Shown: in pieces, positions 8,839 through 15,849 of the stretch
Layout: every line of letters begins with the position of its first letter
Position numbering within the stretch: the first letter of the stretch is position 1
Source of the DNA: Candidatus Thorarchaeota archaeon
GTDB taxonomy: Archaea; Asgardarchaeota; Heimdallarchaeia; Hodarchaeales; Hodarchaeaceae
Direction: 5' to 3'
DNA: 32,000 bases
Assembly: GCA_048882505.1 (NCBI GenBank)
Contig: JBHLRO010000025.1
Span: forward strand, 1 to 32,000
The notes under the pieces: model-generated
Told to the model about the DNA's origin: nothing
What the model saw: the letters and a program-made list of their open reading frames with translations, nothing else
Database searches by the model: none
Translations under genes and position numbers: made by a program

Positions 8839-10746
8839 GTGATAAAAGTGATAAAACAGGCAATATTGGAAATTCCTGGTTTATATCCTGTATACTTCGT
8901 CATAGTCGGACTAGCAATCTTTATCATTGCCTATCTCGTCTATGCTCGGTGGTTTGATTCCAAAGTTATCAAAGCAGACCCAAAGAAGACAACCCCAGCA
9001 AATATGTACATGGATGGCGTGGAGTTCTTTCCCACGGAGAAGTCCGTCCTCTTCGGTTTTCAATTTAAAACCATTGCGGCGACAGGACCGATCATGGGTC
9101 CATTCATTGCCCTCCTCTTTGGATGGCTCCCTGCATTTCTGTGGATTGTACTTGGTAACTTTTTCATCGGGTGGGTTCAGGATTACTCCTCGACTATGCT
9201 TTCAGTTCGGCATGACGGTAAATCCTTTGGCCCCTTGGCCTATGAATTCGTAAGTCCTCGTTCTCGCAACGTTCTGTTGGGTTATATTGTTGTCTACCTC
9301 CTCATCATCCTTGGTATCTTTGCTTACGTTGTTGCGTTGCTCTTCGATCTTTTCATGGCTTCGATTATTCCGACAATAATGGTAGTTGTAGCTGGTGTGG
9401 TAGTTGGCTATCTTCTGTACAAGGTTAAGATGCCAGTGATTCAAGCTACACTTATAGGACTCGGTATAATCGTGATTGGATTCCTTCCTGCGATAATAGA
9501 TCCTGCTTTCTCGTTAACACAATTTACGGGAGGTAATCAAGAAATTATGGATTTAGGCTTCATGACGTTACGTTGGTTTGACGTCCTACTTATCCTGACC
9601 TGCGTGATTGTGTTCTTAGGAGCTGTTCTCCCCATTGGATCCTATTCCCAACCAATTAACTACTTGTCGTTCTATGTTTGCTATTTTGGTCTCATTCTTC
9701 TCTTAGTGGCCTCACTGCTCACACCATTTCTTCAATTTACAGGGACCATTGGTACGGTTGACTATGTAAATCATCCCCTGACGATTCAAGCCCCAGCAAT
9801 TGGAGAATTATTTGCTGTTGATGGAGCCACTGGCGCATTAACGCTCCTTTGGCCTGTCATGTTTGTTGCCATTGCGTGTGGTGCAGTTAGTGGTTGGCAC
9901 AGTTTAGTGGGTTCCAGCGGTACTTCGAGACAGCTAAATCTAGAGACTGATGCACTCCCCGTTGCAGCTGGCAGTATGCTTAGTGAGGGAGTACTTGCTT
10001 TGGTAGCCCTGGCGGCGTTCTCCGTTGTACCAGGAGCAAGGTACGGTCCTCTTGCGGTAGGAACATTTGTCAATGGTGCCACCATGATGACTCATCCAAT
10101 TGTGGGTATGATTGGTCTGAACCAAGCAGTTACGTCAGCTCTACTTGCTGCGCTAGTAATTCTGTTTGCCATTACAATTATGTATGTGGCGCTAAGATTT
10201 TTCCGTCTAGCTCTAGCAGAACTTCTAGAACCTGTTCCAGCCTTAAGTGCGGCAGCGAAGAATGTCTATATTGGTGCCTTTGTAGGGACAGTACTAATGT
10301 TTCTGTTTGCGGAGACAAAAGCATTTGTTTGGATGTGGATTCTCTTCGGAGGAGCCAACCAGCTGATGGCATCTCTGGCTCTAATCCTAGTTACGCTTTG
10401 GTTAGTAAGGGAACGGAAACCCCAATGGTTCGTTTCTGGCATTCCTGCGGTGTTTATGTTCGCAACATGCATTGCTGCGTTACTACTGACCTCCTACAAC
10501 TTCTTGCTTTTCGCTCTGGATCCATCGGGGGCCCTCGCTAGTGGTTTAATTGGAGCTATCGGGACAACCCTCGCGGGCAGAGGGATCCATGATCCATTGT
10601 CAACACCTATGGTTCAGTTAATGAGCGTAGCCTTCCTTGCAATCGCACTGATTCTAGTGATATTAGCTTGTCTGCTCGCATGGGATGCATACAAAGCCTT
10701 TCAGACCGGTAGAGCAGAAGCTCCACCTACGGTAACTCCTGCGTGA
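8839..10746 (+). CDS. cstA: Carbon starvation protein A family transporter (peptide/pyruvate)
   Basis: TTPA...DGVEFFPT..VLFGFQFKTIAATGPIMGP, GWLPAFLWI, IACGAVSGWHSLVGS, EGVLAL, W.LFGGANQLMA; about 16 hydrophobic segments. Confidence 0.93.
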   Translation: MIKVIKQAILEIPGLYPVYFVIVGLAIFIIAYLVYARWFDSKVIKADPKKTTPANMYMDGVEFFPTEKSVLFGFQFKTIAATGPIMGPFIALLFGWLPAFLWIVLGNFFIGWVQDYSSTMLSVRHDGKSFGPLAYEFVSPRSRNVLLGYIVVYLLIILGIFAYVVALLFDLFMASIIPTIMVVVAGVVVGYLLYKVKMPVIQATLIGLGIIVIGFLPAIIDPAFSLTQFTGGNQEIMDLGFMTLRWFDVLLILTCVIVFLGAVLPIGSYSQPINYLSFYVCYFGLILLLVASLLTPFLQFTGTIGTVDYVNHPLTIQAPAIGELFAVDGATGALTLLWPVMFVAIACGAVSGWHSLVGSSGTSRQLNLETDALPVAAGSMLSEGVLALVALAAFSVVPGARYGPLAVGTFVNGATMMTHPIVGMIGLNQAVTSALLAALVILFAITIMYVALRFFRLALAELLEPVPALSAAAKNVYIGAFVGTVLMFLFAETKAFVWMWILFGGANQLMASLALILVTLWLVRERKPQWFVSGIPAVFMFATCIAALLLTSYNFLLFALDPSGALASGLIGAIGTTLAGRGIHDPLSTPMVQLMSVAFLAIALILVILACLLAWDAYKAFQTGRAEAPPTVTPA

Positions 10747-10822
10747 AGTGTCTCGCAAGTTGGTTGAAAATCCTACCTGTAGTCTCAGGCCAAGTTTCCT
10801 TGAGATATCAGGTTTCCTCTCC

Positions 10823-10833
10823 CCCCTTTTTTT
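10823..10833 (+). terminator. Possible archaeal oligo-T terminator after cstA
   Basis: Pyrimidine tract CCCCC-TTTTTTTT about 80 nt after the cstA stop; boundaries approximate. Confidence 0.3.
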
Positions 10834-10969
10834 TACATGCCAGGATTGCATTCTCAACAAAACGCACCTAGAGGAAAAAGTTCCCTAGAATTAATCTAAG
10901 ATTGATGACCACATAGGGTAACAACGGTGTTGTTACTTTATAGATAGTTTCAGCCCTCTATTTAGGATA

Positions 10970-11569
10970 ATGACCTTAATACTAAAGATTTTTAATTCAT
11001 TTTCTCTGAACCGCTCTTTTGTGATTCAATTGAATGACTCTCAAGAAAGCGAAGCGATGGATTATGTACTCAGATTAATGAGTCTATCTGCCCGAACTAG
11101 CCCAAAAACAGCAGGCATTGATGACATTCTACTCAAGATCGTTGTGGGAGAAGAAAAAGGAAAAGTAGTAGAGGAAATGCACAGGCTTGGAAAGGAACGA
11201 GGTATTCCAAATTTCCATCGAGATGCTCGTAGTATTGATAAAAGTCACGGAATGCTCCTTATAGGTATTGAAAGGAATGCTGGTACCATTAGTTTGAACT
11301 GTGGTGCTTGTGGTTTCGATTGTGATGAACTAGATGATATGAAAAAGGAAGGAGCAGATTATTATGGCCCCAATTGCGCTTATAAACTCCTAGATCTGGG
11401 GATCGCTCTTGGATCGGCAGCAAAGACAGCTAGCATCATGAATGCAGATAGTAGGATCATGTATCGTGCAGCTACAGCTGCGATGAGGATTGGGATTTTT
11501 AATGACGTTTCAGTGGCTTTAGCAATCCCAATTTCAGGTACAGGAAAAAATGTCTTTTTTGATCGTTGA
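10970..11569 (+). CDS. DUF2148 / ferredoxin-domain-containing protein (COG4739-like); true start probably a few codons downstream
   Basis: SARTSPK, NCGACGFDC, GPNC...LDLGIALGSA, DSRIMY, terminal KNVFFDR. Confidence 0.85.
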   Translation: MTLILKIFNSFSLNRSFVIQLNDSQESEAMDYVLRLMSLSARTSPKTAGIDDILLKIVVGEEKGKVVEEMHRLGKERGIPNFHRDARSIDKSHGMLLIGIERNAGTISLNCGACGFDCDELDDMKKEGADYYGPNCAYKLLDLGIALGSAAKTASIMNADSRIMYRAATAAMRIGIFNDVSVALAIPISGTGKNVFFDR

Positions 11570-11590
11570 TTATCAGTTGGAGTATTAACT

Positions 11591-11944
11591 TTGGCATTAG
11601 AAAACCTTTCTAGAGTTTCGTTTTCCGATATGGAACGAATCGATTTAAGAATCAGGGTAAAAAGTGGGATTGCCTCCATTTTTGGCAAGATATATTTGCA
11701 TGAGAAATTTGATGTACGCGTTTTTGGTTTCGAGGAAAAAGTCCTTGAAAAGGATCTCGAGTCCTACCTTGAAAAGGTTGGTCGTGAAGCTTCAGAGAAT
11801 GGGATAGATTTCAGATCTTCGGTCACAAAATGGGGATGGCTTTGGACGCTCGAAAAGAAAATGTGGGCAGCAACTTCGGGTGAGGTTCTCTCCCCTCATA
11901 GGTGTCCTGCCTGTGTTCTTATGGAGGGATCCCTTCGTAGTTGA
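11591..11944 (+). CDS. Hypothetical protein, 117 aa
   Basis: TTG start 21 nt after the DUF2148 stop, same strand. Protein-like composition; CPAC near the C-terminus. Confidence 0.5.
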   Translation: MALENLSRVSFSDMERIDLRIRVKSGIASIFGKIYLHEKFDVRVFGFEEKVLEKDLESYLEKVGREASENGIDFRSSVTKWGWLWTLEKKMWAATSGEVLSPHRCPACVLMEGSLRS

Positions 11945-12084
11945 CATCCCAACTATATAATCATAAACCTTTTTGATTTAGATTTATAAATTGGAATTTA
12001 TCCTTTTTAATAAAGCCTTATCACTCAGATGTAACAGGAGTAGCAATAGACATCAAAATTATTTCGGATGGATCTCCTATGAAA

Positions 12085-13083
12085 CTATAGTGTGATTACA
12101 TCCGCAACTTTTCCAACAGCGCTCACCCCAAGAATCTCAGTCTCGAATAGGGGAATTTCCGCTAGAACTAGATTCCCGAGGTTTTTGTTGATATAATTCA
12201 TGTAGGTCTCTTGCTGGTTGTAGGCATTCTTCAAATAATCTGTTGATGTTTCTTTTAAAACAATGTCCTTTGAAATTACCTTATTCACAATGACGCCACC
12301 TACTGGGATATCGAAAGAAGATACCATTCGAATGAATCTTTCTACTACAGCAATTGGCAGTGCTAAGGGAAGAGTTATAAAAAAGAAAGCTGTTTGGTTG
12401 GAATCCTTGAGAAGCATTTTTGCAGCCTCTGTCTTCTGTCTGGTTTTAAGTAGATCTGCCATTAGAGGATCTTTTTCAATTTCCTTCTTTATTCTATCCT
12501 TTCGAAAGCTGAGTTGTAACCGGATAGAAAGGGCCTCCTTTCTGGACTGGATCATCCTCCCAAGCCAGAGATCATAGAGCTTAGACAATCCAATAAGTCG
12601 AATTGCGTTTGCTACAGCAGCGGTATCGAATACCATTACATCAAACTCGTCCTTTCTTTCGATCATCATGTTTGTCATTTGGTCAAATTGAGCGCTTTCT
12701 TCAAAACTGGGATTTGTAGTAGCAATTTCAACAAAAGATTCGGTTTTGACAGGGATATCAGCATATTTTAGGAAAAAATCAATTTTACGCTTTAGCTCTT
12801 TTTTATAATTTTCCACAGTGTCTGTAATATCAATCTCGCATGCCCAAACGTTGTCTAAGCCTTCCAACTTAGCTACTTTTCCCCTTGGAAGGCGTTGATC
12901 AAATAGACTGCTCAATGAGTGAACTGGATTAAGACTGGATAACAGAACGCGTTTTCCCTTTCTAGCGAAGTCCAATGCAATTGCAGCGGCACTGATTGTC
13001 TTACCAACACCTCCTTTTCCCCCTGTGAAAATGTACTTTAAGCTGGGTTTATTTTCTATGAAGGTTCTATAGGTTTGTGACAT
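12085..13083 (-). CDS. ArsA/GET3-family ATPase, degenerate copy (Switch I Asp to Asn)
   Basis: Deviant Walker A GGKGGVGKT. Switch I reads SSLNPVHSL (canonical STDPAHSL; AAT codon at 12928-12930). Switch II reads FDTAAVANAIR (canonical DTAPTGHTLR). Confidence 0.9.
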   Translation of the reverse strand: MSQTYRTFIENKPSLKYIFTGGKGGVGKTISAAAIALDFARKGKRVLLSSLNPVHSLSSLFDQRLPRGKVAKLEGLDNVWACEIDITDTVENYKKELKRKIDFFLKYADIPVKTESFVEIATTNPSFEESAQFDQMTNMMIERKDEFDVMVFDTAAVANAIRLIGLSKLYDLWLGRMIQSRKEALSIRLQLSFRKDRIKKEIEKDPLMADLLKTRQKTEAAKMLLKDSNQTAFFFITLPLALPIAVVERFIRMVSSFDIPVGGVIVNKVISKDIVLKETSTDYLKNAYNQQETYMNYINKNLGNLVLAEIPLFETEILGVSAVGKVADVITL

Positions 13084-13103
13084 TTGACAGATCTCCTAGT
13101 TAA

Positions 13104-14126
13104 TCAATCAGGTCTTTCCCAGAGAAATAGATCCTCTGCGACCTTTGTCAGAAGTTCGATTCCCTTGGGTTCTCGGTCATACATAGGGATTACTGCCAAT
13201 ACCTTGTCACCAAATCGGTCAAATATCGTGTCGAGATGTCTTTGCTGCATCTTTATCTTGTTCTTTAGGAAGTCAGAAAGAGATTCATTTTCTAATAATT
13301 CCGAAGGATATACCTGGTTGACTAATACCCCTGAAATGTTTATTCCAAATTGCTCAAACATATTGATGGCACGTTCTGTATCTAGAATTGCCATCTGCTC
13401 GGGAATTAGTACCATGAAGAAACCAGTACGATCTTCATTCTGTAGCATCGAACTGAAGAAGTTGAGTCTATCCCGAATTTCAATGAGTTCCCCCATGATG
13501 GCATCTTCAGCCAAATCCTGCTTTGTTTTTCTCATAAATTTGGCAGCTACTTCCTCGTATTCCTCTGCCTTCTCTCTCATACCTGTAATCTTTTGAATCC
13601 AGCTGCTTAAAACATCTGCAGTAGATACGAAGCGAACTCCATGTCCAAAGGGAGGCATGTCAAATATGTAGAGTGTATATTTTCCCTCAGACACCAGAGA
13701 AACCATGGCATCATAAGTAGCCGATTCGTGCATCGCAGGTTCGGCTTTTGCGCTCTCTATGTAATCCTCTATCTCCTCGGGGATCTCTTCGAGCTTGTAT
13801 AAGTTAAAGATTTGTTGCCTCACGCTTTGTACATAATTCTCAATCTCCCTATCAGCATCGATTTCAGTCACAAAGAGGTTCTCTGCGAGTTTGACCTCAC
13901 CTTTTCCGAATACATCCTTCTCGAACACATCACTTAATGAGGCCTGAGGGTCTGTTGAGAAAACAAGAGTTTTTATTATTTTCTCTTTAGAGAAGTGAAT
14001 GGAGGTGGCTGCACTGAGAGTGGTTTTCCCTAATCCTCCCTTTCCTGCAAATATAAGGGTTTGAATATCTTTTTTTTGGTCAAAAAATTCCGTATAGGTC
14101 GAGTATGTATCCTTCACAATTTTCAC
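13104..14126 (-). CDS. ArsA/GET3-family ATPase, catalytically intact-looking copy
   Basis: AGKGGLGKTT, STDPQASLSD, EIDA, FDMPPFGHGVRF, VNQV. The protein contains no Cys. Confidence 0.92.
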   Translation of the reverse strand: MKIVKDTYSTYTEFFDQKKDIQTLIFAGKGGLGKTTLSAATSIHFSKEKIIKTLVFSTDPQASLSDVFEKDVFGKGEVKLAENLFVTEIDADREIENYVQSVRQQIFNLYKLEEIPEEIEDYIESAKAEPAMHESATYDAMVSLVSEGKYTLYIFDMPPFGHGVRFVSTADVLSSWIQKITGMREKAEEYEEVAAKFMRKTKQDLAEDAIMGELIEIRDRLNFFSSMLQNEDRTGFFMVLIPEQMAILDTERAINMFEQFGINISGVLVNQVYPSELLENESLSDFLKNKIKMQQRHLDTIFDRFGDKVLAVIPMYDREPKGIELLTKVAEDLFLWERPD

Positions 14127-14167
14127 CTTTACCTAAGAATATACGTGATGACGTCAAATGGTGAACT

Positions 14168-14476
14168 CTAGTAGAGAGCGTCAGTGAGATCCCTTTCTTT
14201 AAGCATCCTCCTTTTCCAAGTCTTGATCTGGGGCACAACGTAGGGCAAGATACGCAGTGAATAATATGGGGGCAAGATTGGGATACCCATAAGGTCACCA
14301 AGGGTGATCAGCATAAACATGTGTTCAAAGTACATCCTACTCTTTAGAGCCTGCCTGGACATTCCATGCATCGCTGCTCCGTAGATAAGACGTTTAATAG
14401 AAGCTCTTAGCCCCTTAGCCTCACTCTCATTATCAGATTCATCATTATCGGACCTATTTTCTTCAATTCCAGACAT
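14168..14476 (-). CDS. Small protein of the family found with cstA and ArsA-type ATPases (resembles 'cory-CC-star' proteins but lacks the terminal CC)
   Basis: HMFMLITLGDLMGIPILPPYYSLRILPY...WKRRMLKER resembles the remembered DLFMLLVFSEALGIPNP.SYYTLELLP...WHRRMGMER. First gene of the ArsA operon. Confidence 0.7.
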   Translation of the reverse strand: MSGIEENRSDNDESDNESEAKGLRASIKRLIYGAAMHGMSRQALKSRMYFEHMFMLITLGDLMGIPILPPYYSLRILPYVVPQIKTWKRRMLKERDLTDALY

Positions 14477-14724
14477 CTTATTACCCCATCAAAATTGGTT
14501 GGATATCTCTCATTATATTTAAATTTGGTTAAACAAGGAACATAAGCGTTGAAAAGTACAAAGAAATGTTAAATTTTTTGATTAATATTAAATGCTGATA
14601 GCTTTTCTTTCAATGAATGTGAATATATTGATTGTGAAGAATCCTTTTCAACGGAAATACGAGAAATAGATTGACCTCAGATAGTGTGATTTGCCTGAGC
14701 GTATAAGAGTCAATTATTAATATT

Positions 14725-15849
14725 CTAATTATCGTTTTTAACAACCTGTCCCAATACCTCGCTTAATCTTACCACATTCTCGACTCTTGCGGCATGACCC
14801 ATTAGTCCAATCCGCCAAATTTTTCCCGCAAGGGGACCCAATCCTCCTCCAATCTCTATCTTTTGATTAAACCGAAGATAATTACGGGTCTCAACATCAT
14901 GAATGTTTTTTGGAATTTTTACCGCGTTCAGCATGGGTAGACGGTTTGGCTTTTCTACTAGAAATTCAAGGTTCAATTCCTCAAACCTTCTCACCAATTC
15001 GTTGTGAGCATCGAGGTGCCTCTTGAATACATTTTCAATGCCTTCATTGAATATGAGCTGTAAAGCTCTGTAAAATGCATAAAGCATATTCGATGGGGCC
15101 GTGTGATGATACACTCGCTTCTTCTCTCCGCTCCAATATTGGCTTATTAAATTTACATCAAAATAAAAGTTTGGGACTCTTTCTTTCCTATTAAGAACGG
15201 CAGAAACCGCTCTTTCGGAAAAAGATATTGGTGCTAATCCAGGTGGACATGAGAGGCATTTTTGAGAGCCACTGTACACTGCATCCAACCCCCATTTGTC
15301 CACATTAACCTCCATACCGCCTAAACTTGTAACACAATCGACTAAGAACAGGGAATCTGTTTCGTTAACGGCTTTTGCTAAACCTTCGATCGGATTTTTG
15401 ACCCCGGTGGATGTTTCTCCGTGAACAGCGGCAATTATTTTGTAATCTCGATTCGAAAGCTCTTCTATTACTGTTTCTTCCAGAATTGGGGTTCCCCATT
15501 CAAATTCTAGGTAATTCACATTTGCTCTGAGTCTTGATGCTACTTCAATCATTCGCTTTCCAAAAATACCGTTTGCCAAAATCAGTACCGAATCTTTTGG
15601 TTCAATCAAATTAACAAAACAAGTCTCCATTCCAGAAGAGCCTGTACCTGACACAGGAAATGTCACAGTATTGCGTGTCATGAACAATTTCCTTAGGAGG
15701 ATTTGAATTTCATCCATTATTTCAATAAAGTAAGGATCTAGGTATCCTAGGGTTTTACAAGTCATAGCGCGGTATATTTCAGGTGGAACATGCGAAGGGC
15801 CCGGTCCCATTAATAATATGTCTTCTATTCCGTCTAAAAGATCTTTCAC
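14725..15849 (-). CDS. Alanine-glyoxylate/serine-pyruvate aminotransferase (class V PLP)
   Basis: LLMGPGPS, SGTGSSGME, VHGETSTGV, LVDCVTSLGG, SGSQK (PLP Lys), YHHTAP, WRIGLMG. Confidence 0.93.
   Translation of the reverse strand: MKDLLDGIEDILLMGPGPSHVPPEIYRAMTCKTLGYLDPYFIEIMDEIQILLRKLFMTRNTVTFPVSGTGSSGMETCFVNLIEPKDSVLILANGIFGKRMIEVASRLRANVNYLEFEWGTPILEETVIEELSNRDYKIIAAVHGETSTGVKNPIEGLAKAVNETDSLFLVDCVTSLGGMEVNVDKWGLDAVYSGSQKCLSCPPGLAPISFSERAVSAVLNRKERVPNFYFDVNLISQYWSGEKKRVYHHTAPSNMLYAFYRALQLIFNEGIENVFKRHLDAHNELVRRFEELNLEFLVEKPNRLPMLNAVKIPKNIHDVETRNYLRFNQKIEIGGGLGPLAGKIWRIGLMGHAARVENVVRLSEVLGQVVKNDN

Follow-up and report, generated by a model that had tools for sequence, protein, structure and literature searches.

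Results and Discussion

A CstA module in the Thorarchaeota window

We describe a group of genes at positions 7597-14476 of a 32,000-nucleotide (nt) stretch of DNA from a Candidatus Thorarchaeota archaeon (contig JBHLRO010000025.1, positions 1 to 32,000; hereafter the window), which are one copy of a widespread module centred on a permease of the CstA family. These genes almost certainly form one functional module with CstA, in which a small protein (CstX), a single-pass membrane protein (CstY) and two ATPases of the Get3/ArsA fold accompany the permease. The reading that we favour, with a probability of about 0.45, is that the ATPases drive or gate transport by CstA in an ATP-coupled manner. 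The module is here split into two convergent units, cstY-cstA-DUF2148-CPxC gene facing cstX-arsA1-arsA2, and its members are as follows:

7597-8304 (+): cstY-like gene, 235 aa; one N-terminal transmembrane helix and a cytoplasmic alpha/beta domain with a predicted CCDC47 fold
8839-10746 (+): cstA, CstA-family permease, 635 aa, multipass (Pfam PF02554, E 5e-96)
10970-11569 (+): DUF2148 protein (ferredoxin-domain family), an occasional accessory (Pfam PF09918, E 3.9e-29)
11591-11944 (+): 117-aa soluble CPxC protein, an Asgard-specific accessory with a conserved C-terminal CPxC motif
12085-13083 (-): arsA2, Get3/ArsA-fold ATPase, 332 aa, degenerate subunit (Pfam ArsA_ATPase, E 2.4e-55)
13104-14126 (-): arsA1, Get3/ArsA-fold ATPase, 340 aa, putative catalytically competent subunit (Pfam ArsA_ATPase, E 8e-69)
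14168-14476 (-): cstX, 102-aa DUF7990 protein, predicted helical hairpin and probable adaptor of the ATPase pair (homologues labelled PF25952)

An earlier reading made from the letters and translations of this DNA (the sequence-only reading) had placed cstA, a gene of 102 aa and two ArsA-family ATPase genes at these positions, with gaps of 41 nt between cstX and arsA1 and of 20 nt between arsA1 and arsA2, and the listing of open reading frames (ORFs) and the family scans agree with it on all of these. It also had cstA converging on the ATPase operon; the two do converge, but they are not directly adjacent, as the DUF2148 and CPxC genes intervene on the plus strand. These two genes, together with cstY upstream of cstA, are members of the module that the reading had overlooked. 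Its observation that the window has no arsB, acr3, arsC, arsD or arsR gene holds among the ORFs of at least 90 aa covered by the family scans, shorter ORFs lying outside the scan.

The window CstA has many hydrophobic segments and is, by genome search, the sole CstA of its genome. It is 78% identical to the CstA of a sister genome and approximately 42% identical to CstAs adjoining CstX/ArsA pairs in other Asgard loci. A search for solved structures matching CstA found none.

Linkage of cstA, cstX and the ATPase genes across bacteria and archaea

There were 3614 homologues of CstX at E <=0.001. Gene neighbourhoods were surveyed in two sets of loci: 400 genomes of the window's phylum, with up to 20 kb fetched around each CstX match, and the best 80 of at least 590 CstX matches in a species-representative genome collection. 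The latter 80 loci span Asgard archaea, Bathyarchaeia, Chloroflexota, Desulfobacterota, Betaproteobacteria, Acidobacteriota, Bacillota, Nitrospirota, Methylomirabilota and others. Within the fetched flank, cstA was present in 73/80 of them; it lay directly upstream of CstX on the same strand in 65 and was convergent in 6, these being one Heimdallarchaeote and five Bathyarchaeia. Both ATPases passed the filter in 62 of the 65 loci with room for them, and the other 3 have split or overlapping ATPase hits. Moreover, in the three full-flank CstX loci that lack an adjacent cstA, the genome encodes CstA elsewhere in every case.

Distribution within the window's phylum tells a similar story. CstX is found in 20 of the 400 genomes, and in the genus in 2 of 22 (the genome of the window plus 1 of the 21 others); all 16 genomes of the phylum survey that bear CstA fall among these 20. 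The usual order in the phylum, on one strand, is cstA, one or two divergent small paralogues, the conserved CstX, ATPase 1 and ATPase 2. The convergent layout of the window is reproduced exactly in the sister genome (L038) and, among the phylum loci, is shared by that genome only. Two CstX paralogues are present in 58 of the best 80 loci, whilst the window holds a single copy.

The linkage of cstA, CstX and the ATPases is far beyond chance, and the genes of the module are co-inherited across bacteria and archaea. That cstA is merely a chance neighbour of the ATPases has practically no probability left, given that the linkage of the ATPases to cstA and cstX is kept across dozens of phyla and is phyletically complete within the window's phylum, and the survey rules this explanation out. 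The sequence-only reading had taken linkage in spite of opposite strands as a sign of selection for a module, and the co-occurrence found here (cstA in 73/80 CstX loci, both ATPases in 62/65) strongly supports that view.

The association has been described before. In the sections of their paper that treat these operons, Castillo and Saier (Int J Microbiol 2010:187373, PMC2963123) report 26 SEED operons with cstA, a CstX of approximately 90 aa and single-domain ArsA homologues of approximately 330 aa. The ArsA homologues are sometimes adjacent pairs that are 25-31% identical, no ars genes are reported alongside, and a single-pass CstY of approximately 210 aa is noted in five archaea (PMC2963123). 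From gene context, with no experiment, they put forward a role for the ATPase in energising CstA, the two being linked by CstX. Thermococcus kodakarensis is among the carriers that they list, with CstX paralogues and CstY. The neighbourhoods of cstA, a small protein and arsA that the sequence-only reading mentioned for other prokaryotes are to be found both in these operons and in our survey. Neither the CstA-ATPase association nor the idea of coupling is therefore new, and the window is a rearranged Asgard copy of a known module. Like the clusters as described in that paper, it combines a CstA permease, a small CstX, paired ATPases of about 330 aa and a single-pass CstY with no ars genes; it differs in being convergent and in having one CstX. 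The DUF2148 and CPxC genes are not mentioned where that paper describes its clusters (PMC2963123).

An ATPase pair with one canonical and one degenerate site

ArsA1 and ArsA2 are 28% identical to one another. Both pass the cut-off of 135 bits for TIGR00345, the TRC40/GET3/ArsA subfamily, at 220 and 200 bits respectively, and both fail the ArsA equivalog TIGR04291 (90 and 84.5 bits against 650). The closest solved relatives of both are the archaeal Get3 structures 3ug6 and 3zq6 (E 8e-57 and 3e-54 for ArsA1). M. tuberculosis BagAB (Rv3679/Rv3680) resembles the window in having two adjacent genes for single-domain Get3-like ATPases, a likeness that NCBIfam also picks up. An assignment of the window pair to BagAB was rejected, the scores falling far under both equivalog cut-offs (BagA NF053622, 60.5 and 38.3 bits against 400; BagB NF053621, 32 and 21.4 bits against 521).

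The two subunits differ at the nucleotide site. Amongst ArsA1 orthologues the switch I Asp is retained in 64/68 and the switch II Gly-His in 66/68. In ArsA2 orthologues switch I carries Asn in 67/67, and the switch II Gly-His is replaced by Ala (67/67) and Asn (65/67), with the P-loop intact. The equivalent Asp-to-Asn change in yeast Get3 stops hydrolysis and leaves ATP binding. Judged by these motifs, the pair combines one canonical nucleotide site, in ArsA1, with one conserved degenerate site, in ArsA2, and therefore ArsA1 and ArsA2 should form an obligate heterodimer in which only one of the two sites hydrolyses ATP. Where the module takes its actinobacterial form it has one ATPase, with canonical switch I and II retained.

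There are no cysteines in ArsA1 and one in ArsA2, and neither has a CxxC motif. This bears on the proposal that the ATPases are a split ArsA that powers arsenite export by an ArsB or Acr3 whose gene lies elsewhere. The Pfam and NCBIfam assignment to the ArsA/Get3 superfamily would suit that proposal, as would the ArsB-like and Acr3/SBF-like genes on contig C3, but the metalloid-binding cysteines are impossible in such a pair, the ArsA equivalog scores fall far short and the scanned ORFs of the window include no ars gene. We give it next to no credence, and the neighbourhood survey rules it out. The ArsAB pump is nevertheless an instructive comparison. Like the window, it has a Get3/ArsA-fold ATPase with two non-equivalent nucleotide sites and an associated carrier-type permease; however, ArsA is a fused two-domain protein whereas the window has two separate single-domain genes, and the partner is ArsB or Acr3 whereas in the window it is CstA, with CstX and CstY in addition and the metalloid-binding cysteines absent.

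The genome has a third ArsA/Get3 homologue, on contig C18 (C18:39336-40247, L001), which is its best Pfam match (E 2e-82) and has canonical switch motifs together with CxxC. By these motifs it is probably the housekeeping archaeal Get3 and, since it is separate, the window pair is not; the pair is therefore neither an arsenic pump nor the housekeeping Get3. Get3/TRC40 and the window pair are alike in that Get3 structures are the best solved sequence relatives and both ATPases pass TIGR00345. They differ in that Get3 is a symmetric homodimer with a CxxC zinc motif, whereas the window pair is a presumed heterodimer with one degenerate site and no CxxC. Moreover, Get3 serves many clients, whereas the window pair is fixed beside one transporter and one small protein.

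This kinship brings in an alternative to ATP-driven or ATP-gated transport, namely that the module is a dedicated biogenesis or assembly machine, whose accessory genes build the CstA complex instead of running CstA. The Get3-like heterodimer would capture the hydrophobic CstX hairpin, or segments of CstA, for delivery to the membrane, and CstY would act as an intramembrane or juxtamembrane chaperone. We hold this to be rather unlikely, though it deserves weight at several points below. In the ATPases themselves it can draw on the archaeal Get3 structures being the closest solved relatives of both subunits and on archaeal Get3 homologues having been reported to bind tail-anchored proteins (PMC6593721); the separate canonical CxxC Get3 that the genome retains speaks against it.

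CstX as a candidate partner of the ATPases

The best 120 listed homologues of CstX come from bacteria and archaea, are 55-86% identical to it and carry the precomputed label PF25952 (DUF7990); in the Atlas the window CstX falls in DUF7990 clusters at 0.97. A core of 70 residues is nearly invariant from bacteria to archaea, with 32 invariant positions in 30 sequences, and these include Gly-Asp, Pro-Pro-Tyr-Tyr and a basic Trp-Lys-Arg-Arg stretch. In the loci surveyed the CstX gene is always directly upstream of the ATPase gene or genes. The highest 19-residue Kyte-Doolittle window, near the C-terminal half, scores 1.41, which is under the usual level for a membrane helix. CstX has no cysteine and ends in Leu-Tyr. 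Modelled alone it gives a low-confidence helical hairpin (predicted local distance difference test score, pLDDT, 61.8), which was kept out of fold searches, and a search for solved structures matching the CstX profile found none.

Relatives of CstX are found in Actinomycetota. The NCBIfam family cory-CC-star (NF041419) matches CstX at E 4.7e-8 with 32.9 bits against a cut-off of 80, and the C-terminal Cys-Cys of that family is absent from CstX; despite the sub-cut-off score, CstX is homologous to the cory-CC-star proteins. Bona fide CC-star genes lie between cstA and a single ArsA-like ATPase gene in 11/11 loci (L158-L168), and in those where both ORFs were captured the CC-star gene overlaps the start of the ATPase gene. 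The one-ATPase form is carried by relatives of Corynebacterium, and Haloferax volcanii, used as a control, gave provisional hits for both CstA and the CC-star family. By contrast, a relationship of CstX to YbdD/DUF466, the small partner family of E. coli, was rejected. The PF04328 profile misses CstX and nine paralogues while matching E. coli YbdD at 1.6e-30, and hhalign gives a probability of 0.09%, such that the small partners are analogous and not detectably homologous.

We modelled ArsA1 and ArsA2 with two ATP molecules and CstX as partner, alongside three controls. The outcome was 'weak support', with a score of 0.56 against 0.01 for the best of the 3 controls; contact agreement between runs is at least 73%, and the pLDDT of the partner is no lower than 55. 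The pass mark of this procedure is reached by 58/80 solved complexes and 2/110 mismatched pairs, and a pass at a score <=0.60 is seen in just 7 of those 80 solved complexes and in both mismatches. The model thus lends weak support to CstX binding the ATPase dimer. There is also a natural in-frame fusion of CstX to ArsA1 (P0139, 414 aa), on a contig with the order cstA, CstX paralogue, fusion and ArsA2. A limited search for longer CstX relatives found no fusion of CstX to CstA. Taken together, the complex prediction, the natural fusion and the invariant adjacency give moderate support to CstX as an ATPase partner. The sequence-only reading had cast the small protein as a coupler working with the ATPases; contact between them gains modestly from the weak prediction, the fusion and the gene overlap, which do not separate an importer from a chaperone.

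The same observations can be set against the assembly machine introduced above. The weak predicted contact and the fusion suit a client of the ATPases as well as an adaptor, and the CstX segment is moderately hydrophobic; monotopic hairpin proteins are known GET clients (PMC9123286). However, the hydrophobic part of CstX is nearly invariant, with a conserved Asp and several Pro, where a plain anchor would be expected to keep hydrophobicity alone, and its hydrophobicity lies under the usual transmembrane threshold. Moreover, a permanent fusion of client to targeting factor is hard to square with release into the membrane.

Some further observations concern CstX. A second CstX::ArsA1 fusion, on a bacterial contig (L171:4039-6266), has a truncated CstX, a DUF772 transposase gene directly upstream and no cstA nearby; it looks like a module disrupted by an insertion element and is uninformative. 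Thorarchaeial loci have an extra CstX copy, 52-65% identical to that of the window, on the opposite strand just past the DUF2148 gene (L061:15300-15572 (-), with matching ORFs in L046, L047, L049, L050, L055 and L071), and of the module the L055 contig has this pair of CstX and DUF2148 only. The Atlas feature search also placed CstX near LETM1_RBD clusters at 0.82, below the 0.9 level, and in one such cluster, of a 63-aa bacterial protein, 62% of members carry LETM1_RBD and 31% DUF7990. An hmmscan of 31 members at E up to 10 gave no match to LETM1_RBD (PF07766), which leaves this an unproven lead to a possible remote relationship with proteins of the LETM1 type.

CstY has the predicted fold of CCDC47

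The 235-aa protein encoded upstream of cstA fits the published CstY as described in length, membrane pass and position beside cstA. Its one hydrophobic segment spans residues 9-37 and leads into a basic stretch and, because basic residues follow the N-terminal membrane helix, its domain should be cytoplasmic. By iterated hidden Markov model (HMM) search the family is present in 36/80 CstX loci, in both domains of life, and mostly directly beside cstA.

The AlphaFold2 model of CstY (pLDDT 81; predicted template modelling score 0.79) ends after one C-terminal helix. Its top Foldseek hits in the PDB are CCDC47 chains (7tm3_4, 9i78_4 and 6w6l_7; E 1e-8, TMq 0.70), and alignment to 7tm3_4 by VIA-align gives Z 17.8 and a root mean square deviation of 2.6 over 213 aligned residues. 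In the Atlas the model matches a PF07946 cluster at a template modelling score of 0.78. The second-best solved match is TtfA (6t84, Z 9.9), titled in the PDB as a mycobacterial trehalose monomycolate transport factor, and TtfA works with the MmpL3 transporter. On the evidence of the model, CstY would share with CCDC47 and TtfA an N-out, single-pass topology and a cytoplasmic alpha/beta domain of the same fold. At the level of sequence, identity to the aligned structures is 9-14%, and a Pfam search at E <=0.01 matched no family to CstY, CCDC47 (PF07946) included. Our literature searches found no mention of prokaryotic relatives of CCDC47.

CCDC47 is a subunit of the PAT complex of the multipass translocon of the endoplasmic reticulum (ER) and a factor in membrane-protein biogenesis that works beside multipass membrane proteins. 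The match of the CstY model to CCDC47 chains of ER multipass translocons is a further argument that the accessory genes assemble CstA. The likeness is incomplete, though: CCDC47 has a C-terminal coiled coil that contacts the ribosome, which CstY does not have, and CstY is 235 aa against 290-371 residues in the structural targets. No Asterix partner was identified either, though no search aimed at one was made. Moreover, the CstY family differs from CCDC47 in being encoded inside a transporter and ATPase module, in bacteria as well as archaea.

Accessory genes and a possible redox or metal link

The two remaining genes of the module are less constant. In several Asgard loci the second ATPase gene is followed, 0.2-1.8 kb further downstream, by a DUF2148 gene, and DUF2148 is found in 7/80 CstX loci, four of them Chloroflexota. 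The 117-aa CPxC protein matched no Pfam or NCBIfam family; iterated HMM search found 17 ORFs of its family (some being the same locus fetched twice), all of them in Asgard-type module loci and sharing the motif LEK..G.CPxC. In the Thor/Asgard loci inspected for position, the CPxC gene comes directly after that of the second ATPase.

Proteins with cysteine motifs are found repeatedly next to genes of the CstA family, which may be read as a sign that the module belongs to a redox-linked or metal-linked process. The SIMIBI-class ATPases would then deliver a cofactor or metal, or act in sensing, the cysteine-motif partners would be central, and CstA would move a thiophilic or unrecognised substrate. 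Many SIMIBI NTPases deliver metals or clusters. As examples of the cysteine motifs, the CC-star proteins of Actinobacteria, which are related to CstX, end in Cys-Cys; the DUF466 partners of E. coli and Campylobacter, which are unrelated to it, end in Cys-Cys or Cys-Sec (selenocysteine); and the window itself encodes the CPxC protein and, in DUF2148, a ferredoxin-domain protein. We nonetheless judge this reading improbable. CstX and ArsA1 of the window have no cysteine and ArsA2 has one. With DUF2148 in 7/80 loci and the CPxC family in Asgard loci only, these two are accessories and not the core. Characterised CstA-family proteins, moreover, import pyruvate or peptides (PMC5847655).

Other ORFs are seen at the same end of related loci. 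In Chloroflexota a membrane protein of approximately 215-228 aa, apparently with several passes, lies between the second ATPase and DUF2148 (L066:4236-4880, L082:12292-12939, L105:4495-5181, L120:12336-13022). Thorarchaeial loci have a 312-aa ORF between the CPxC protein and DUF2148, with an N-terminal glycine-rich motif that appears by eye to be dinucleotide-binding-like.

ATP-coupled drive or gating of CstA

The favoured reading, that ATP drives or gates transport by CstA, can be put as a mechanism. CstX and the membrane-anchored CstY would keep the ATPase dimer attached to CstA on its cytoplasmic side. With binding and hydrolysis of ATP the dimer would close and open in the manner of ArsA and Get3, a movement that would drive or gate uptake of the substrate, which in characterised relatives is pyruvate or peptides. 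By analogy, the ATPases would do for CstA what ArsA does in turning the carrier ArsB into an ATP-driven pump; that ArsA energises ArsB is established, as summarised in the 2010 paper (PMC2963123).

We cite three precedents for this reading: ArsA and ArsB, the match of CstY to TtfA, and the need of E. coli CstA for YbdD. In E. coli, CstA-YbdD and BtsT-YjiX resemble the window in that a CstA-family permease gene adjoins the gene of a small partner protein, and E. coli CstA genetically requires YbdD for pyruvate uptake (PMC5847655). The window CstA is distant from the E. coli type, scoring 125 bits against an equivalog cut-off of 1188.

Several points weigh against ATP drive or gating. BtsT has been reported as a proton symporter, and neither E. 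coli CstA nor BtsT is known to have an adjoining gene for an ArsA-type ATPase; the annotation of the 4.5-kb cstA-ybdD region in E. coli K-12 shows none. With no ATPase gene beside these E. coli permeases, it follows that the CstA fold does not need an ATPase. The window ATPases are nearer archaeal Get3 (196 bits) than ArsA (84 bits), and ATPases closest to Get3 together with a CstY of CCDC47 fold are just as compatible with a role as chaperones. The complex prediction is a weak pass with no reported interface, and its scope was the ATPases and CstX, with CstA outside it. The clean CstX::ArsA1 fusion is known from one metagenomic contig, and our literature searches found no experimental test of the CstA-CstX-ATPase module.

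CstA-family transporters are widespread nutrient-scavenging carriers, among which a large clade, represented in many phyla of both domains, is linked to ATPases of the Get3/ArsA fold. The sole account of the role of these ATPases that our literature searches found is the gene-context prediction of 2010. If the ATPases drive or gate CstA, this would be the second case of a Get3-fold ATPase running a carrier, after ArsAB, and it would explain why CstA needs small partner proteins. If instead the accessory genes build the transporter, bacteria and archaea would own a dedicated biogenesis unit of the Get3/CCDC47 type, with a bearing on the origins of the eukaryotic GET and PAT systems. A stronger claim is conceivable, though we think it doubtful: that a carrier-fold permease run by a single-site Get3-fold heterodimer, through a DUF7990 hairpin adaptor and a CCDC47-fold anchor, represents ATP-coupled transport of a new class, distinct from the ABC and P/F/V-type families, or else that the module is a prokaryotic source of eukaryotic CCDC47, and perhaps of Get3 partner logic, in membrane-protein biogenesis. 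The window copy alone is of modest value, being an Asgard copy with a rearranged layout and a patchy distribution, and the interest lies in the module as a whole.

Flanking sequence and neighbouring genes

The remaining genes of the window are those of acyl-CoA metabolism and of an oligopeptide ABC transporter. Homologues with names in the database indicate relatives in Hodarchaeota or Heimdallarchaeota. From reading the letters alone, TTTAAATATAA at 14513-14523, approximately 47 nt upstream of the cstX start codon, could be an archaeal TATA box, and the CPxC gene and arsA2 converge on a 140-nt spacer (11945-12084) with T runs on both strands that could be terminators.

Lastly, a class V aminotransferase gene at 14725-15849 (-) adjoins cstX, both here and in the sister genome. 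Its best NCBIfam matches are transaminases of the aspartate-glyoxylate and aminoethylphosphonate-pyruvate types, all under cut-off, and homologues also flank the module in three Bathyarchaeia loci (L068, L083 and L127). The flanking aminotransferase may be a clue to the substrate, which could be pyruvate, alanine or glyoxylate, or may reflect a common origin of the cluster.

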